A model generated the notes under the pieces. It ran no database searches and had not been told where the DNA came from. It saw nothing but the letters and a program-made list of their open reading frames with translations. From Dehalococcoidia bacterium (GTDB taxonomy: Bacteria > Chloroflexota > Dehalococcoidia > Plut-88900): a stretch of 64,000 bases of DNA. The position numbers and the translations under genes are program-made. Every line of letters begins with the position of its first letter. Positions within the stretch are counted from its first letter, which is position 1. Below, one piece after another: positions 20,306 to 28,301 of this stretch. The stretch spans positions 128,001 to 192,000 of the forward strand of contig CBDBLV010000004.1 in the NCBI GenBank assembly GCA_965207225.1. Reading direction: 5' to 3'.

Positions 20306-21649
20306 TTAGTTGGTTTCGGGGAAGAGGGGACCGCGGCCCAGTTCGGTGAGGACGCGCGACGCGGAATGGACGGCGGCATCCATTCCGGAACCTGCAGTGT
20401 AGTCACCGGCGAAGTGGATGTTGGCGGTCGGGGCCTGGATGTTGGGAACGTTAGGCAGGCGACCGACCAGCCACGGGCTGCCACCGTGCTCCCAGTGCTT
20501 CAGTGCACCGGTTATGACGCGGCCCCGGGTGTCGGGGAGGACTTCGTACATGGACTCCATCAGGGATTCCAGGGCCTCGCCGTCTGAAAGCTTCTGGAGG
20601 CGCTTGGACTCGACGTCGCCGGTGTAGACCCGCAGGAGCCCTTGCCCTGTGCGCTCCTTGACCTCCCTGGGGAAGGTGATGGTGGGGTTGGTGACGGAGA
20701 CCAGGGGACTTCTAACCGTGGGCACCCGCCATACGCCCTCGCCGAGGAAGTCCTCGGAGGGGCGGTCCAGGAGGAAACCGGCGCTGGTTATGGAGCCGTA
20801 GGTGGCGGCGGCGAGTGCTGTTCGCTTCCAGTCGGGAAGAGGGTCAACGATGTTGAGAGCCAGGGGCGCGGGGACGGCCATGACGCACTTCCCGGCCCGG
20901 ACCGTGTGGGTCTGGCCGCCCTGATTATAAGTGACGGTGACGCCATCTGCGGACTCTTCGACCCTCGACACCTCTGCCGAAGTCTTAATCCTATCGGAGA
21001 GGCGGTCCCAGAGGGCTCGGGCGATCTGCCAGGTGCCGCCATTGACGAAGTATTCCTTGGCTACGAAGTGTAGGAATGTGTTGATAGGGTGGTAGGCCGA
21101 TGACTCTCCGGCGTCGGTGGTGGTCGTGGCGAGGGCGACGGTGTCCCAGAGATCCCGGAGGTCACCGGGCTTGAGATTCAGGTATTGGGCGAGGGTCATG
21201 GAGTTAAGGTGGATGATCTTGGGGTCATTGATGTCGGGGAAGTCCTTGCGGAAGCCGCCGTACTTGCGCCTGAGGTTGAAGACGTCCCATCCGAGCTTGA
21301 TCTTGTCGGTGATAGAGATGGGAAGCTGCCACAAGAAGGACGGCTCGTTGGAAGCGGCGACAAGTTTTCCCTTCATGATTACGGGGAGTTTGGTCTTGCC
21401 GATGAGGCTGCGGTTAACGCCCAATTCGTTAGTGAGTGGAGCCACGAGGCTGTCATCCCCGTTCACGACCTGGGCGCCCATATTGTAGATGTACTCGCCC
21501 ATCTGCTTCGAAAGGGTGCGCCCGCCGCAGTAGTCCTCCCTTTCGAGGAGCAGGGTTTCTTGGTCCTGGAGTCGGTAGGCTACGGTGAGGCCGGCGAGGC
21601 CCCCGCCTACGATAACGGTGTCGAAGGTCTTGGGGGTGGTTGCGGGCAT
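20306..21649 (-). CDS. Flavin-containing amine oxidase/protoporphyrinogen oxidase-like FAD oxidoreductase
   Basis: IVGGGLAGL, LLEREDYCGGR, IHFAGDYT..GMDAAVHSA. Confidence 0.85.
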   Translation of the reverse strand: MPATTPKTFDTVIVGGGLAGLTVAYRLQDQETLLLEREDYCGGRTLSKQMGEYIYNMGAQVVNGDDSLVAPLTNELGVNRSLIGKTKLPVIMKGKLVAASNEPSFLWQLPISITDKIKLGWDVFNLRRKYGGFRKDFPDINDPKIIHLNSMTLAQYLNLKPGDLRDLWDTVALATTTTDAGESSAYHPINTFLHFVAKEYFVNGGTWQIARALWDRLSDRIKTSAEVSRVEESADGVTVTYNQGGQTHTVRAGKCVMAVPAPLALNIVDPLPDWKRTALAAATYGSITSAGFLLDRPSEDFLGEGVWRVPTVRSPLVSVTNPTITFPREVKERTGQGLLRVYTGDVESKRLQKLSDGEALESLMESMYEVLPDTRGRVITGALKHWEHGGSPWLVGRLPNVPNIQAPTANIHFAGDYTAGSGMDAAVHSASRVLTELGRGPLFPETN

Positions 21650-21757
21650 GGCGAGCTCCAATGATGGATGTGGGAAGTCGGGGGTGGGGTCGGGTATATA
21701 ATAGCACCCCGCCTATCTAACCTTCGACCAAAGGAACACCGGAAGGATACCCGCAGT

Positions 21758-22750
21758 ATGCCCAGAACAAATTACGGGATAAGCCTGTCCAACCGCTCGG
21801 TGGTGACGGGGGACAAGACGGTGGAGGAGCTGGTGGGCATGGCGGAAGTGGCAGAGGAGTCGGGGTGTTTTGATGGGGTGTGGGTAGGAGACAATCTGCT
21901 GTCCAAGCCGAGGTTCGATTACCTCGTGCTCCTCTCAGCTATCGCCGCCCGAACGAACAGGGTGAAACTGGGCACCATTTGCATGGCGACTTTCCCGCTA
22001 CGCAACCCGGTCCAGCTAGCCATTCAGTGGGCCAGCCTGGACGTGCTGTCGAATGGTCGGACGGTCCTAGCTGTCTGAACTGGAGGTCCGGCCCGGTACG
22101 GGCCGCTGTTCGCCAAGGAGCTGGAAGTGATGGGAGTGGAGTCGAACGAGAGGGTCGGGAGGATGCTCGAGGGGATGCGGATACTCAGGCGGCTGTGGTC
22201 GGAAGAGAAGGTCACTCATGAAGGGCGGTTTTATAAATTCCAGGACCTCGACGCCCTGCCGAAGCCCGCCCAGGCCCGGATCCCGATCTGGCTGGCGGTT
22301 AACCCCAAGGGTGATGTAAAGCCGGAGTTGCTTGATCGGGTCCTGAAGCGGGTGGCGAAATACTCGGATGGGTGGCAGACGGATGCGATTACAGCGGAGG
22401 ACTTCCGGGAGAGGTTCGACCGCATCAAAGCGTATGCGGCGGAGATGGGTCGGGATGCGGACGCACTGGACTCGAGCCTGCACCTGATGGTCAACATCCA
22501 CGATGACCGGGACACGGCATATCGGCAGGCCCACGACTTCCTGGTCGGGTACTACGGTTCGGCGTTCATGAGGCCGGGCCTAATCGACCTCTGGGTTGCC
22601 TACGGCCGCCCCGAGAACGTGGCGGAGAAGATCCAGTCCTACGTGGACGCTGGGTGCACGACTCCCGTACTGAGGTTTGTCGGACCGGATATGACGGAGC
22701 AGGTGGGCCGGTACGTCGAAGAGGTGGCGCCGCTGTTGGATAAGAGATGA
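21758..22750 (+). CDS. LLM-class oxidoreductase with in-frame TGA (22076-22078), putative selenocysteine
   Basis: ORFs 21668-22078 and 22127-22750 are in the same frame. Readthrough gives one 330-aa LLM (VWVGD..., LDVLSNGRTVLAV[U]TGG, PKPAQARIPIWLA). A SECIS-like hairpin follows the TGA. Confidence 0.8.
22079..22105 (+). promoter_or_regulatory. Putative bacterial SECIS element
   Basis: TGA, 10-nt spacer, then perfect stem CGGCCCG-GTA-CGGGCCG (22089-22105) with GU in the apical loop. Confidence 0.65.
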
Positions 22751-23898
22751 GGATCTTGGTCCTCGGGTGCGGGTTCCACGGACGGGGGATCGCCTACCAG
22801 ATAGCAGCAGAAGGCGAGGATGTGGAGCTGGTGGCGGCGGACAAGGATGGGGAACGGGCGCGTCGGGTGGCGGAGAGGACGGGCGGGGAGTGGATGGAAT
22901 TGGATGTTAAGGATGAGTCGGGGCTGAGGGAGGCTTTGAACGGGGTAGATACGGTATTCAACGCCACGGGGCCCTACCATCTGCTGGGTTTGAAGGTGGT
23001 TGATGCGGCAATTGTAACTAACACTCATTATGTAGACATGGCCGATGACCATGAAATGACCGAGGAGCTGTTTTTCAACCCGGCGTGGGACCGGCGAGCG
23101 CGGGAGGCGGATGTCGCGGTGCTGTCGGGGTGCGGGATTATGCCGGGGCTCAGCGGGGTGCTAGCCAGGCACGGATACGACGAAATGGACGAGCCACGAA
23201 AGATAAACATCTGGTTTACGTGGAATTATTCGCTGAATTATCCTTCCGCTATACATCACTTCCTGAGGATCAACAACGGGTTGGCACCGCAGTTTATGAA
23301 TAGTGGTTATGTTAAGCCTGGGGCTTTCGCAAACAGAGAAACTATAGACTTTTTGCTGCCGGTCGGGGGTAAGGAGGTGTACTATACGGGCGTGCCGGAC
23401 CCGGTGAGTATTTCGCAGTCGCTGCCGGGGCTAAAAGAGGTCACGGCAAGTGGGGGACTGCACCAGCCCGAGGGCAACGACTTCATGGAGTCGATGGTCA
23501 GGTGGGGGTTCACCTCGTATGAGAAGGTCCCGGGTTTTGACCGGAGTCCGATGGAATACCTGATGGCCTATCTAAAGTCTGGCGAGGGAAAGCAATACTT
23601 CGACATCGAGCCTCTGGGCCAGCCTATGGCGGTGCGGGTTAGAGTAGATGGGATGAATGAAGGAGAGCCATGTCGTCGGGTGTTCGAGGTGCAGGACTAT
23701 TCGAGGAGGGGCACCACTTCGGTGGCGGCGCTGGCGACCTTGATGGTGGCGTCGGAAGAGATTCAGAGGAGAGGGGTGGGGAGTCCGGAGGGGTGGCTGG
23801 ATGCGGAGTCGTTCCTAAGGCGGATGGACCGGGAGCCGGGAGTGGATCTGTTTGAGCTGGTGGGGGGTGGGGAGGCTAAGGCCTTGTTTGAAAGGTAA
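22747..23898 (+). CDS. Saccharopine dehydrogenase-like NAD(P)-binding oxidoreductase
   Basis: MRILVLGCGFHG, FNATGPY, HYVDMADD, GCGIMPGLS; ATGA overlap with the upstream LLM stop. Confidence 0.87.
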   Translation: MRILVLGCGFHGRGIAYQIAAEGEDVELVAADKDGERARRVAERTGGEWMELDVKDESGLREALNGVDTVFNATGPYHLLGLKVVDAAIVTNTHYVDMADDHEMTEELFFNPAWDRRAREADVAVLSGCGIMPGLSGVLARHGYDEMDEPRKINIWFTWNYSLNYPSAIHHFLRINNGLAPQFMNSGYVKPGAFANRETIDFLLPVGGKEVYYTGVPDPVSISQSLPGLKEVTASGGLHQPEGNDFMESMVRWGFTSYEKVPGFDRSPMEYLMAYLKSGEGKQYFDIEPLGQPMAVRVRVDGMNEGEPCRRVFEVQDYSRRGTTSVAALATLMVASEEIQRRGVGSPEGWLDAESFLRRMDREPGVDLFELVGGGEAKALFER

Positions 23899-23960: not shown

Positions 23961-24872
23961 ATGATGGGCAATTACGATGACTTTACGGCGTATTTTAACG
24001 GGGAGTGGGTCCCGTATAGCGAGGTTAGGTTCCCGCCCCACGATCGGGGTTTTGCGGTTGCGGACGTTGTCTTCGACCAAGGGCGCACTTTCGGAGGGGT
24101 TCCGTTCCGGTTGGAAGACCATATCAATCGGCTATACAGGTCGCTGAAGTATGTGCGGGTAGATCCCGGGCTCACTGAGGACGAGATGGTGGAGGTGTGT
24201 CGGGAGGGGGTAGCGAGAAACGACCACCGCCGGGACTCTGTCGGAGACTTTGCCATCAATCCGATCATCACCAGGGGAACATCGGTGAGTGGGCCACCTA
24301 GTGTTGCGGTGATAATCAAGCCTATAGATTTCAAGGATTTTGCGAGGTTCTACGTGGACGGCGCCCACGCCATTGTTACCAAGGTGCGCAGCTACTCCAG
24401 CGCCATGCTGGATGCAAAGGTAAAGCACCACAGCCGGATGAACTTCGTACTGGCGGAGCTCGAGGCCCGGGACGTAGACCCCGAGGGCTTGCCCCTTCTC
24501 ATGGACATGGAAGGGAACGTCACCGAGGGGCTCGGATACAACGTTTTTATCGTTACGGACGGAGTGCTTAGGACGCCCAAGGACGACAACATCCTGCAGG
24601 GCGTATCCCGACAGACCGTGTTCGATCTGGCCGAGGGTCTCGGGATTCCGGCCTCGGAGGAGGACCTGCAGCCATACGACCTTTACACGGCGGACGAGGT
24701 GTTTTTCAGCAGGACGAGTCCACGAATCGTGCCAGTGGCAAAGGTAGACACCCGGCCGATCGGGAGCGAGATACCGGGTCCAATCACGCAACAGTTGCTG
24801 GCGGCGCACAGCGAGCTTGTAGGTGTGGATATTGTCGGGCAGAGTCTGCATTATGCGGGGGTCGAGGGGTGA
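23961..24872 (+). CDS. Aminotransferase class IV (second paralog)
   Basis: YFNGEWVP, DRGF, AKVKHHSRMN, EGLGYNVF, LQGVSR, ADEVFFS. Confidence 0.88.
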   Translation: MMGNYDDFTAYFNGEWVPYSEVRFPPHDRGFAVADVVFDQGRTFGGVPFRLEDHINRLYRSLKYVRVDPGLTEDEMVEVCREGVARNDHRRDSVGDFAINPIITRGTSVSGPPSVAVIIKPIDFKDFARFYVDGAHAIVTKVRSYSSAMLDAKVKHHSRMNFVLAELEARDVDPEGLPLLMDMEGNVTEGLGYNVFIVTDGVLRTPKDDNILQGVSRQTVFDLAEGLGIPASEEDLQPYDLYTADEVFFSRTSPRIVPVAKVDTRPIGSEIPGPITQQLLAAHSELVGVDIVGQSLHYAGVEG

Positions 24873-24914: not shown

Positions 24915-25679
24915 ATGGCTGACAGCATGAATGGTAGGGTTGCGCTGGTCACGGGCGGGGGATCCGGGATTGGGAGGGCGACATCGCTAGTGTTTGCAAG
25001 GGAAGGGGCGAAGGTCGTGGTGGTAGACCTTGCGGAAGGGCCCGTGCAGGCAACTGTAGACCTAATCGCGGCTGGGGGTGGGGAGGCGTCGGGGGTGACG
25101 GCGGACGTGTCGAATACTGAAGACGTGAAGCGTATGGTTGCGGAAACGGTGTCGAGGTTCGGGCGGTTGGATGCTGCGTTTAACAATGCAGGCATCCATA
25201 CCGGCGTCCGAATCCCGTTCCACGACTATCCGGAAGACGAGTGGGACAGAGTAATCGACGTGAACCTAAAGGGCGTGTGGCTGTGCATCAAGTATGAGGC
25301 GCCGGTGATGTTAGAGCAGGGTGGCGGGACAATTGTTAACACAGCCTCGGTGGCGGGGCTGGTAGCGGGGCAGGGGACTTCGGCATACACGGCGAGCAAG
25401 CATGGGGTTGCGGGGCTGACCAAGAGTGCAGCCATGGACTACGCCAGACAAGGTATCCGGGTGAACGCGGTGGCCCCAGGGGAGATAACCACCCCAATGA
25501 TGGACCTGATAATCAGGTCTAACAACTTCTCGAAGGCCCAGAAGGACGAGGAGCAGCCCATCGGCAGGATGGGCAAACCCGAAGAAATCGCGGAGGTGGT
25601 GGTCTGGCTGTGCACCGACGCTGCGTCCTACGTCACGGGCCACGTGTTCCCGGTGGACGGCGGATACATGGCAACCTAG
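24915..25679 (+). CDS. SDR family oxidoreductase
   Basis: TGGGSGIG, NNAG, YTASKHG, IRVNAVAPG, VDGG. Confidence 0.92.
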   Translation: MADSMNGRVALVTGGGSGIGRATSLVFAREGAKVVVVDLAEGPVQATVDLIAAGGGEASGVTADVSNTEDVKRMVAETVSRFGRLDAAFNNAGIHTGVRIPFHDYPEDEWDRVIDVNLKGVWLCIKYEAPVMLEQGGGTIVNTASVAGLVAGQGTSAYTASKHGVAGLTKSAAMDYARQGIRVNAVAPGEITTPMMDLIIRSNNFSKAQKDEEQPIGRMGKPEEIAEVVVWLCTDAASYVTGHVFPVDGGYMAT

Positions 25680-25714: not shown

Positions 25715-26857
25715 ATGATCAAGCATTTCTCTTCGCTGTACGTGGGCCATATCGAACTGGAGAACGTCGGCGCGAATGGCACATCGCCCGAGGACCGGCT
25801 GTACCCCAACGAGCGGCTCACGGAGTGTTTCGGGATGGCCGAGGCTATAGCCAAGCAGATGGACTCCCAGGGCTACTACGCGCTGTGGATGGCCGAACAC
25901 CATTTCCAGAGGGAGGGATACGAGTGCATACCCAACCTCCTGATGCTCAGCACGTACCTTTCAACGCAAACGAAACGGCTAAAGTTTGGGTGTGCATTCA
26001 ACATCGTGCCGATGTGGCATCCGTTGCGGCTGGCCGAAGACTTCGCGATGGCGGATATTTTGTCGGGGGGTAGGGTGATATTCGGGGTTGGTCGGGGCTA
26101 CCACACCCGAGAGGTCGAGACTTTCGGGTCGCCAATGCAGGACAATGACGCCAACAAAGAGCTGTTCATGGAGCAAATGGAGATAATCTTCAAGGCGTTC
26201 AACGAGGACTCATTCACCTACAGGGGCAAACACTACAACCTCCCGGCCCAGGTGCCTTACAGGGGCTACGATTTGAAGGACATTACACTGGTCCCGAGGC
26301 CCCTCCACAGACCCGTTGATGTTTGGCAGCCAATAGCAAGCCGACGCACGCTCAGATACATAGCCCAGACGGGAATAAAGGGTGTGGTACATGGGACGGG
26401 AGAGAGGCTGGTAGACGATGTGTTTCGCGAATACCAGGAGGCGGCGGGCGAGGCGGGTCGGGAGCTGGGGTTGGGCGAGGACCTGGCCCTAGGGTTGTTT
26501 TTCTACATAGATGAAAACCAGCCAAAGGCAATGGAGCGGGCCAGGCTATTTCACGACGAGCGGTACAAGTGGTTCGCTCCCTTCGGGCTGGTGCGGTATA
26601 CGGATGCCGAGGGTCGGCCGTGGGGTACGCCGGGCGCACCCAGCCGGGCCCCGACGCTGGAGGATGGCGTAGACCAAAAAGTCTGGCTTTGCGGGGACTC
26701 GAAATACGTTACTGAGGTGCTGAAAGAGTTCGAGGCCAAGTATCCGGGGCTGGAACATGTGATACTGCACTGGCCCGAGGGAATGTCGCTGGCGGAATAC
26801 TCGGAGCAGCTGACACGGTTCCATGAAGAAGTCATGCCGGTTTTCGGGGCAGGGTGA
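25715..26857 (+). CDS. LLM-class flavin-dependent oxidoreductase
   Basis: WMAEHHFQREGYECIPN, WHPLRLAEDFA, GRVIFGVGRGYH. Confidence 0.9.
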   Translation: MIKHFSSLYVGHIELENVGANGTSPEDRLYPNERLTECFGMAEAIAKQMDSQGYYALWMAEHHFQREGYECIPNLLMLSTYLSTQTKRLKFGCAFNIVPMWHPLRLAEDFAMADILSGGRVIFGVGRGYHTREVETFGSPMQDNDANKELFMEQMEIIFKAFNEDSFTYRGKHYNLPAQVPYRGYDLKDITLVPRPLHRPVDVWQPIASRRTLRYIAQTGIKGVVHGTGERLVDDVFREYQEAAGEAGRELGLGEDLALGLFFYIDENQPKAMERARLFHDERYKWFAPFGLVRYTDAEGRPWGTPGAPSRAPTLEDGVDQKVWLCGDSKYVTEVLKEFEAKYPGLEHVILHWPEGMSLAEYSEQLTRFHEEVMPVFGAG

Positions 26858-27260: not shown

Positions 27261-28301
27261 GTGAGCAAGCGATTGGTGTTCGTCGGGGCGGGGGCGGTGG
27301 GGAGCTATATTGGCGGTCTGATTTCTGAGGCTGGAGAGGATGTTACGTTAATTGACCCTTGGCCCGACCATGTGAATGCGATAAAGAGGGATGGCTTGCG
27401 CGTCTCGGGTACGCAGGGGAGGCACCACGCCCGGCCCACCGCACTCCACATCAACGAAGTCCAGGGCCTGATCAAGTCGCCAGTGGACATCGCCTTCATA
27501 TGCACCAAGTCCTACGACACAGCATGGGCTTCCTATCTTATTCGAGACTACATTGCGGATAACGGATTTGCGGTCTCAATCCAGAACGGGATCAACGAGG
27601 ACACGATTGCAGCGGCGCTGGGTAGGGAGCGGGTGCTGGGGTGCATTGCCAGCAACATAGGAGTGGGGCTGGTGGAGCCGGGGCACGTGACCCGGACGGC
27701 GGCCGCCGGAGGCAAGGCCCACACGGTCTTCAGGGTTGGGGGGATGGATGGAAAGATGACCGCGAGGTTGCAGGAAGTAGCGGAGTTACTGGAGGTAGTA
27801 GACAGCACGAAGGTAACAACGAATTTGAACGGAGAACGGTGGAGCAAGCTGGTGGCCAACTCCATGGGGAACGGGTTGCAGGCAATCACGGGGTTGAGCA
27901 GCAAAGACATGGCCATGACCGCAGACGTCAGGAGGCTGACCATCCGATTGGCGGCAGAGGCAGTGGAGGTCGGGCAGGCGATTGGGCTTTCGCTGGTGCC
28001 GATAGGGGGCAAGGACCCGGAGGTGTGGCTGGCGGCGGGACGGGGCGAGGGGCTGGAAGAGCTGGAGCTTTCGATAATGCAAGCGGCGGAGCGGTACCAG
28101 GAGTCGGGGCGGTCATCTACGGCGCAGGACATGGAGAAGGGTAGACGGCTGGAGATCGAATATCTGAACGGGCTGGTGGTGTCCAAGGGTCGGGAGGCGG
28201 GGGTGGACGTGTCAGTTAACGAGGCCCTTGTTGCAAAGGTGAAAGCTGTGGAACGCGGAGAGCTTGCGGTCGGGGTCGGGGCGGCGGAGGGGCTGGGGTA
28301 G
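27261..28301 (+). CDS. panE: 2-dehydropantoate 2-reductase (ketopantoate reductase family)
   Basis: VGAGAVG, TKSYDT, QNG, WSKLVAN, SSTAQD, EIEYLNG. Confidence 0.8.
   Translation: MSKRLVFVGAGAVGSYIGGLISEAGEDVTLIDPWPDHVNAIKRDGLRVSGTQGRHHARPTALHINEVQGLIKSPVDIAFICTKSYDTAWASYLIRDYIADNGFAVSIQNGINEDTIAAALGRERVLGCIASNIGVGLVEPGHVTRTAAAGGKAHTVFRVGGMDGKMTARLQEVAELLEVVDSTKVTTNLNGERWSKLVANSMGNGLQAITGLSSKDMAMTADVRRLTIRLAAEAVEVGQAIGLSLVPIGGKDPEVWLAAGRGEGLEELELSIMQAAERYQESGRSSTAQDMEKGRRLEIEYLNGLVVSKGREAGVDVSVNEALVAKVKAVERGELAVGVGAAEGLG

Follow-up and report, generated by a model that had tools for sequence, protein, structure and literature searches.

Does an in-frame TGA triplet in a gene of the luciferase-like monooxygenase (LLM) superfamily end translation, or does it specify selenocysteine (Sec)? 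The question is raised by a stretch of 64,000 nucleotides from the genome of a Dehalococcoidia bacterium (assembly GCA_965207225.1, contig CBDBLV010000004.1, positions 128,001 to 192,000), here called the window. The initial annotation of this DNA had singled out an LLM gene at 21758-22750, interrupted by a TGA at 22076-22078 and followed by a hairpin resembling a Sec insertion sequence (SECIS), as a candidate selenoprotein gene. Our analysis supports this candidate: judged from sequence comparisons, the gene is very probably a real selenoprotein gene in which the UGA at codon 107 is decoded as Sec. The elements of the gene that bear on this conclusion are as follows.

21741..21747, + strand: Shine-Dalgarno-like GGAAGGA, 10 nt 5' of the ATG at 21758, read from the sequence
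21758..22750, + strand: coding sequence of a putative Sec-containing LLM (PF00296) oxidoreductase of 330 residues, assigned from Pfam, AlphaFold, Foldseek and homologue length
21980..21982, + strand: TGC codon of Cys75, which lies near where strand beta3 ends and may pair with Sec107, assigned from invariance and alignment to Mer
22076..22078, + strand: in-frame UGA, proposed Sec, residue 107, just past strand beta4 (residues 102-106), assigned from conservation and Cys homologues
22089..22105, + strand: SECIS-type hairpin CGGCCCG-GUA-CGGGCCG, with stem 22089-22095 / 22099-22105 and loop GUA 22096-22098, assigned from sequence, folding and conservation

The reading frame and the interrupted codon

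The LLM frame starts with the ATG at 21758 and terminates with the TGA at 22748-22750. Its sole interruption is the TGA at 22076-22078, which lies in the same frame as, and between, the open reading frames (ORFs) 21668/21758..22078 and 22127..22750. The description of two half-ORFs parted by this codon alone was thus accurate: read-through translation (..SNGRTVLAV-U-TGGPARYG.. around the codon) yields 330 residues, and no lesion besides the TGA was found in the whole frame. The homologues that have Cys at this position are 329-334 amino acids long, and the window gene ends at a TGA where the homologues end too. A TATAAT hexamer at 21697-21702, read by eye, lies about 55 nt 5' of the ATG, within the 96 nt that separate the LLM gene from the divergent amine-oxidase gene.

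The conservation of the codon was followed over increasing evolutionary distances. Orthologues were sought in 61 related genomes, including nine of the genus; in all nine of the latter the orthologue (78-100% protein identity) contains a single TGA, and the column is the same throughout. Distant homologues at 39-45% identity have Cys at that column, and one at 35% has Gly. Database homologues were taken as the best 120 of 3535 proteins found at E <=1e-30, of which 119 are full length and the 120th is a fragment, P0003; among these best 120, Cys stands at the Sec column in 119/119 full-length proteins, at 58-64% identity. When 401 genomes, drawn evenly from the phylum, were searched, the Sec form was found solely in the window's own genome (G000), and all of the other strong matches (25/25, 38-53% identity) had Cys. 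Metagenome loci gave Cys in 79/80 cases. The remaining one, L089, is a contig of 1929 bases from a more A+T-rich organism, with an LLM gene at 155-1135 that is 63% identical to the window's and carries TGA at the same column. Where Cys is encoded, its codon is TGC in 94 and TGT in 16 of the 110 Cys forms. Aligning the homologues, as the initial annotation had advised, therefore gave Cys or TGA at the column and never Trp or Arg among the homologues examined, with Gly confined to more distant LLMs. The same annotation had called the position usually Gly. This holds for the superfamily, as seen in 46 tblastn matches to LLM paralogues across beta3-beta4 in G000 (Gly in 37, Cys in 3), but not for the present subfamily, in which Cys is invariant. 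LLM genes are greatly expanded in these organisms, with at least 35 matches per genus genome.

The genomes with the Sec form are Dehalococcoidia metagenome-assembled genomes (MAGs), and the Cys forms examined come from MAGs of Binatia, Thermodesulfobacteriota and Acidobacteriota, among others. A tree was built without the Sec column and with one genus genome, G006, left out because its orthologue is frameshifted. In it, the nine Sec rows group together (SH-aLRT 97), and their clade lies inside the diversity of Cys forms. A single replacement of Cys by Sec is enough to account for this topology; on our reading, Sec has one origin here, from a Cys form in a subfamily whose Cys107 and Cys75 are otherwise invariant.

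Both halves of the gene are under purifying selection. Over six orthologue pairs with a synonymous divergence (dS) of 0.6-1.6, the ratio of nonsynonymous to synonymous substitution (dN/dS) was 0.07-0.14 upstream of the TGA and 0.07-0.16 downstream of it. The 16 codons that lie between the TGA and GTG 22127, the earliest possible restart, show synonymous changes with the residues unchanged. The codon was also confirmed in independent assemblies: contigs from 4 public runs belonging to 4 studies, one of which is probably the source of the assembly itself, retain the TGA and show zero differences at 22076-22078 and 22089-22105 and zero indels. The same contigs vary at the third-codon positions 22072, 22081 and 22087, and a run labelled as a sponge metagenome holds an LLM copy with 10 differences in 301 bases.

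Other positions of the protein also vary within the family. The Cys-form sisters share with the window protein 93 invariant positions and the invariant Cys75 and Cys300; Cys75 is present in 119/119 database homologues and in 80/80 metagenome loci. Two further cysteines of the Cys-form homologues, Cys240 (118/119) and Cys319 (119/119), are Ser240 (22475-22477) and Tyr319 (22712-22714) in the window protein; Cys240 is kept in part of the genus, and Cys319 is kept in L089, unlike in the window's genus. A separate oddity was seen in a Cys-form homologue that belongs to a different family of the class, L034 (G058:C17:229-1185): in it, a TGA (WDSV*VGDS) stands not at the Sec column but at a position that is Trp in every relative. 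Decay to a pseudogene or a sequencing error could explain this, as could some other cause.

The hairpin and the selenocysteine machinery

A perfect stem-loop, CGGCCCG-GTA-CGGGCCG in DNA letters, had been reported 10 nt past the TGA, and it is found there, at 22089-22105. Its stem is a perfect 7 bp, the spacing from UGA to loop is 17 nt, and the folding energy is -12.7 kcal/mol for the hairpin alone and -13.4 kcal/mol within 35 nt. According to the available text of a recent review (PMC13188914), bacterial SECIS (bSECIS) elements are constrained to a loop of 3-9 nt with G in loop positions 1-2, an upper stem of 4-16 bp, a UGA-to-loop distance of 16-37 nt and a minimum free energy (MFE) of -7.5 kcal/mol or lower. 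The LLM hairpin, with a 3-nt loop, 7 bp, 17 nt and -13.4 kcal/mol, lies within all four of these published constraints, in line with the geometry noted in the initial annotation. We counted such hairpins across the genome, defining the class as a stem of at least 7 bp with at most one GU pair, a loop of 3-4 nt with G first, and a stem start 6-25 nt past the codon. Members of this class follow 507 of 111,708 TGA triplets genome-wide (0.45%) and, in the same genome, 122 of the 24,966 TGAs inside read-through frames (0.49%).

The bases of the hairpin are all identical in the nine genus orthologues, whereas the flanking codons are variable. Its codons, GCC CGG TAC GGG CCG, form a run of identical codons longer than any other in the 330-column alignment; by comparison, a single codon is used at 58 of the 225 degenerate columns at which the residue is invariant. 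Sec and Cys forms also differ. At the homologous place, nine of 10 Sec forms have a stem of 7-8 bp and one has 5 bp; of the 110 Cys forms, 95 have a stem of at most 4 bp, 13 one of 5 bp and 2 one of 6 bp, and in none is it 7 bp or longer. The hairpin of L089 is shorter than that of the window, with a 5-bp core (GGCCC/GGGCC) and a 5-nt loop (UGGAU) 16 nt from the UGA. Taken together, these comparisons are what one would expect of an RNA element under constraint.

The genome itself (G000; 4.03 Mb, 5 contigs) encodes what is needed to insert Sec, so that the check for Sec machinery suggested by the initial annotation had a positive outcome. Matches over the family cut-offs were obtained for selA (556 bits), selB (327 bits, or 359 counting a C-terminal piece), selD (387 bits) and tRNA-Sec (66 bits), the last of which is also called by ARAGORN as tRNA-SeC (tca). 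The selD gene has an in-frame TGA of its own, at the classic ..HCAG-U-ASK.. site. The genome also contains prfB, the gene for release factor 2 (RF2; 464 bits), which indicates that UGA is normally a stop here; with RF2 present and the LLM gene itself terminating at TGA, an alternative code with sense TGA (tables 4, 25) is not supported. A hairpin-guided scan combined with Pfam recovered further genes of known selenoprotein types, namely two of the GrdB family (..TGT-U-GTGT..) and one of the ArsC family with a UxxC motif. The selD gene, the two GrdB-family genes and the ArsC-family gene are located at G000:C5:650868 (-), C5:1361105 (+), C5:903111 (-) and C5:75376 (+). Their UGA codons are followed, 11-19 nt downstream, by stems of 7-8 bp with G-first triloops, and the LLM hairpin (offset 10, 7 bp, GUA) shares its architecture with these selD, grdB-like and ArsC-family hairpins of the same genome. 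Dehalococcoidia MAGs are counted among the most selenoprotein-rich organisms in the available text of the BSepDB paper (PMC13326102).

The scan of this genome also drew attention to an ORF of the CoA-transferase family (PF01144; G000:C4:369308-370222, - strand; loci L059 and L197-L209), which has one in-frame TGA (..KMKDNT-U-GVLYSMVQAG..). This TGA occupies the same column in 13 genomes: all nine of the genus, two of sister genera and two of other families (38-39% identity). About 19 nt 3' of it there is a 7-bp stem with a G-first three-base loop, and in one genome both sides of one pair have changed. A homologue at 31% identity has Gly at the TGA column. The selenoprotein families in Table 1 of the review include none such (PMC13188914). 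We regard this ORF as a candidate for a second uncatalogued selenoprotein.

Decoding of codon 107 and the alternatives

We propose that a ribosome arriving at UGA 107 would meet the 7-bp, GUA-loop hairpin 10 nt downstream, which would recruit SelB and Sec-tRNA(Sec). Sec would then be inserted, in what we take to be SelB-dependent fashion, and translation would continue to the terminal UGA, so that the whole frame would yield a single luciferase-like oxidoreductase, a full-length TIM barrel of 330 residues. The identity of the inserted residue is not told by computation, and one may ask whether UGA 107 is instead read through without Sec, either because a near-cognate tRNA or another recoding event inserts Cys, Trp or Gly or because TGA is generally a sense codon. 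That Gly is usual at this column in the wider LLMs (37/46 paralogue matches; Mer and FGD) speaks in favor of such a reading. We nevertheless consider it quite unlikely: the close homologues carry Cys, which is the signature of Sec sites; the genome has complete Sec machinery, other classic selenoprotein genes and RF2; the very same gene terminates at TGA where its homologues do; and the hairpin accompanies TGA and not TGC or TGT.

The interruption could alternatively mark a split gene, with a 106-residue N-terminal fragment and a 207-residue C-terminal fragment restarting at GTG 22127. A sequence AAGGAG lies 7 nt 5' of this GTG (22114-22129), within the coding frame, where it encodes part of the residues K-E-L-E-V; it is probably the reason why gene callers start a 207-residue ORF at this point. 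A 206-residue C-terminal fragment of this LLM gene has indeed been filed as a protein in public databases, under the entry P0003. Yet the AAGGAG is replaced by CAAGAG or CAGGAG in the second subclade (4/8 aligned orthologues), and the codons between TGA and GTG keep the frame, their changes being synonymous and their residues conserved. A break here would furthermore cut a one-domain TIM barrel at the end of beta4, at exactly the position of the invariant Cys of the homologues, all of which are single-chain. We judge two separate products to be highly improbable. Least credible of all is that the TGA is a sequencing error or the nonsense change of a pseudogene at a Cys or Gly codon. Only one substitution is needed to turn TGC or TGT into TGA, and the G006 orthologue is also frameshifted; against this, the TGA has been kept in nine of nine species and in a lineage at 63% identity in the face of a dS of 0.6-1.6 and with a dN/dS of 0.07-0.16 on both sides, and the contigs from 4 runs and 4 studies agree at the codon.

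Several observations nonetheless weigh against the proposed reading as a whole. The nine genus genomes are kin and, together with L089, represent about two lineages with a single origin. The orthologue in G006 (L032, G006:C1:2140239-2141215) is divided between two reading frames, with an overlap near residues 231-235 that marks either a frameshift reflecting real decay or an assembly indel. The ORF 22127-22750 exists, and the AAGGAG before its GTG could support a restart. Across the superfamily, Cys75 and residue 107 are not coupled: in several paralogues Gly107 accompanies Cys75, and two others have Cys107 but lack Cys75. As for the hairpin, an Rfam scan of 21900-22300 with E up to 10 returned a chance miRNA match on the opposite strand and no family. 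The 17-nt hairpin alone is more stable than 198/200 shuffles (z = -3.44), but in its 35-nt context z is -0.71 and 48/200 shuffles fold equally well, and in an 81-nt context z is +0.77, no better than shuffles. Because the longer contexts resemble shuffles and the DNA is G+C-rich, stability carries little weight and was dropped as an argument. Neither do compensatory changes help, the stem being invariant in the nine orthologues and the L089 core showing no double changes; what supports an RNA element is instead the invariance at synonymous sites, together with the difference in stem length between Sec and Cys forms. Finally, a loose bSECIS model (a stem of at least 6 bp anywhere 16-37 nt away) fits 30/110 Cys forms as well. 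Since such loose criteria discriminate poorly, the position-specific stem comparison was adopted.

Protein fold, relation to known systems and gene neighborhood

What kind of enzyme would carry this Sec? The product matches Pfam PF00296 with 169.7 bits (gathering threshold 27.9; E=1.3e-49). An AlphaFold model made from 42 sequences (pLDDT 95.8, pTM 0.92) has the TIM-barrel fold of LLMs, and Foldseek aligned it with TM scores of about 0.8 to Mer, FGD1, a Bacillus cereus LLM and luciferases, at no more than 24% identity (E ~1e-21 to 8cbb, 8qpm, 3rao and 3c8n). In the model, strand beta3 spans residues 70-76 and beta4 residues 102-106; these boundaries would place Cys75 and Sec107 at the C-terminal, catalytic ends of neighboring strands. 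A phmmer alignment to Methanocaldococcus jannaschii Mer matches Ile74-Cys75 with Gly61-Val62 and Sec107 with Gly93. In Mer, Gly61-Val62 forms a non-prolyl cis-peptide bulge that backs the F420 ring from the re-face, according to the available text of PMC5352752. Cys75 thus aligns with the position of a bulge that backs the (deaza)flavin ring. With Sec107 on the catalytic face of the barrel and Cys75 at this ring-backing position, Sec107 may well be a catalytic residue beside the cofactor. One option is a redox-active selenol for which Cys75 is the partner; the other is an acid/base, a proton donor or acceptor that would complete hydride transfer. Strict co-variation of Cys75 and Cys107 across the superfamily was entertained and rejected, as it was not seen among the G000 paralogues.

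The cofactor is more likely F420 than flavin mononucleotide (FMN), a leaning that comes from the nearest profile and structure matches, which are F420 enzymes, and from the ability of the genome to make F420. The best sequence match in the PDB is Mer (E=1e-19). Among named LLM subfamilies in NCBIfam, the best profile matches are to F420 families (TIGR03619 and TIGR03560 among them), and two F420 biosynthesis genes of the genome, cofH (527 bits) and cofD (330 bits), score above the thresholds of their families. It counts against this assignment that the NCBIfam scores are all below cut-off (136.4 vs 166.9, 109.3 vs 231.4 and 106 vs 276); zero models of NCBIfam 20.0 exceeded their cut-offs among the best 25 of 31 matches. 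On account of these scores we place the protein in no named subfamily, but in an unnamed Cys/Sec subfamily. A signature that separates F420 from FMN enzymes was sought in PMC6279831, whose available text yielded no usable motif.

The relation to characterized LLMs can be stated as follows. With the F420-dependent enzymes (Mer, FGD1, TIGR03619/TIGR03560) the window protein shares the PF00296 TIM barrel, matches to F420-family profiles and the alignment at the beta3 bulge; it differs from them at the Sec column, which holds Gly in Mer, FGD and fHMAD but Cys or Sec in this subfamily, and its identity to any solved structure is 24% at most. The bacterial luciferase subunit LuxA has the same fold (1luc and 3fgc, TM ~0.8). 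In the available text of PMC10696468, its residues alphaAla74, alphaAla75 and alphaCys106 are described around the FMNH- pocket, and their mutation destabilizes the C4a-(hydro)peroxyflavin. Numbering and spacing, which nearly match and are the basis of this comparison in place of a residue alignment, suggest that LuxA Ala74, Ala75 and Cys106 correspond to Ile74, Cys75 and Sec107. LuxA differs in being only 17-18% identical, and neither light emission nor oxygenation is suggested for the window protein. The Cys-form sisters, such as P0002 and P0059 (annotated 'LLM class flavin-dependent oxidoreductase [Nitrospinae bacterium]'), are alike in length and 58-64% identical, but use TGC or TGT and are without a strong hairpin.

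Known bacterial selenoproteins are mostly thioredoxin-fold thiol oxidoreductases or metal-center enzymes. If the assignment is right, selenium would here be working in a chemical environment new to it, as a Sec residue on the side of a flavin/F420 TIM barrel that faces the cofactor. In its recoding the LLM gene resembles genes of the fdhF, selD and grdB type: it has an in-frame UGA, a close downstream hairpin with G then U in a small loop, a spacing within 16-37 nt, Cys homologues, and selA, selB, selD and tRNA-Sec in the genome. It differs in its protein family and in having a lone Sec in the ..LAV-U-TGG.. of a TIM barrel, most known selenoprotein families being thiol oxidoreductases with UxxC or CxxU motifs, as stated in the available text of PMC13188914. 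The recoding mechanism is the ordinary bacterial one, and the novelty lies in the protein family.

Neither LLMs nor PF00296 appear among the 119 prokaryotic families and subfamilies in the whole of Table 1 of this 2026 review (PMC13188914). The BSepDB paper speaks of 111 selenoprotein families in its main text (PMC13326102), and neither that main text nor the one of PMC12013277, supplements aside, mentions luciferase, monooxygenase, LLM, F420 or flavin. A search of the literature, with the BSepDB website and the deep-Sep lists outside its scope, returned no link between selenoproteins and LLM, luciferase-like or F420 oxidoreductases. A prior listing, unremarked, in supplements, on the BSepDB website or in large prediction lists is possible. 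On balance we lean slightly toward the view that this is the first selenoenzyme of the LLM superfamily and uncatalogued, with Sec107 beside a (deaza)flavin and possibly in a selenenylsulfide with Cys75, and that it belongs to a larger uncatalogued selenoproteome of Dehalococcoidia that includes the apparent Sec-containing CoA-transferase-family protein. The gene would offer a natural Sec/Cys pair with which to probe the role of the conserved Cys in a widespread, uncharacterized LLM subfamily (the 3535 proteins at E <=1e-30). It would also mean that homology-driven selenoprotein catalogues still overlook families in selenoprotein-rich lineages. Because gene callers fragment the LLM gene, small errors are to be expected in the number of LLMs counted, and in the pathways reconstructed, for these Dehalococcoidia.

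The genes around the Sec-LLM gene are the following.

20306..21661, - strand: flavin-containing amine oxidase, divergent (PF01593, E=6.8e-40), upstream in 9/9 genus genomes
22747..23898, + strand: saccharopine-dehydrogenase-like NAD(P)-binding protein, whose start overlaps the LLM stop (ATGA) (PF03435, E=2.2e-13)
23961..24872, + strand: class IV aminotransferase, of branched-chain or D-amino-acid type (PF01063, E=3.3e-39)
24915..25679, + strand: short-chain dehydrogenase/reductase (SDR) (PF13561, E=1.2e-70)
25715..26857, + strand: second LLM-family gene, without internal stop (PF00296, E=6.3e-41)
27261..28301, + strand: ketopantoate-reductase-like (ApbA/PanE) oxidoreductase (PF02558, PF08546; TIGR00745 over cut-off)

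The ATGA overlap and the succession of saccharopine-dehydrogenase-like, aminotransferase IV, SDR and second LLM genes are as the initial annotation gave them. No saccharopine-dehydrogenase-like gene was seen next to any of the Cys forms examined, of which many have short flanks. Such a gene stands directly 3' of the Sec-LLM gene in all nine genus genomes, and also follows it in L089 (1166-1927, 60% identity). The aminotransferase, SDR, second LLM and ketopantoate-reductase-like genes keep their positions in L169, L170 and L172, and the genus preserves the gene order from the amine oxidase to the ketopantoate-reductase-like gene. Taken by their family assignments, these neighbors suggest the catabolism of an amine or of an amino-acid-derived compound.

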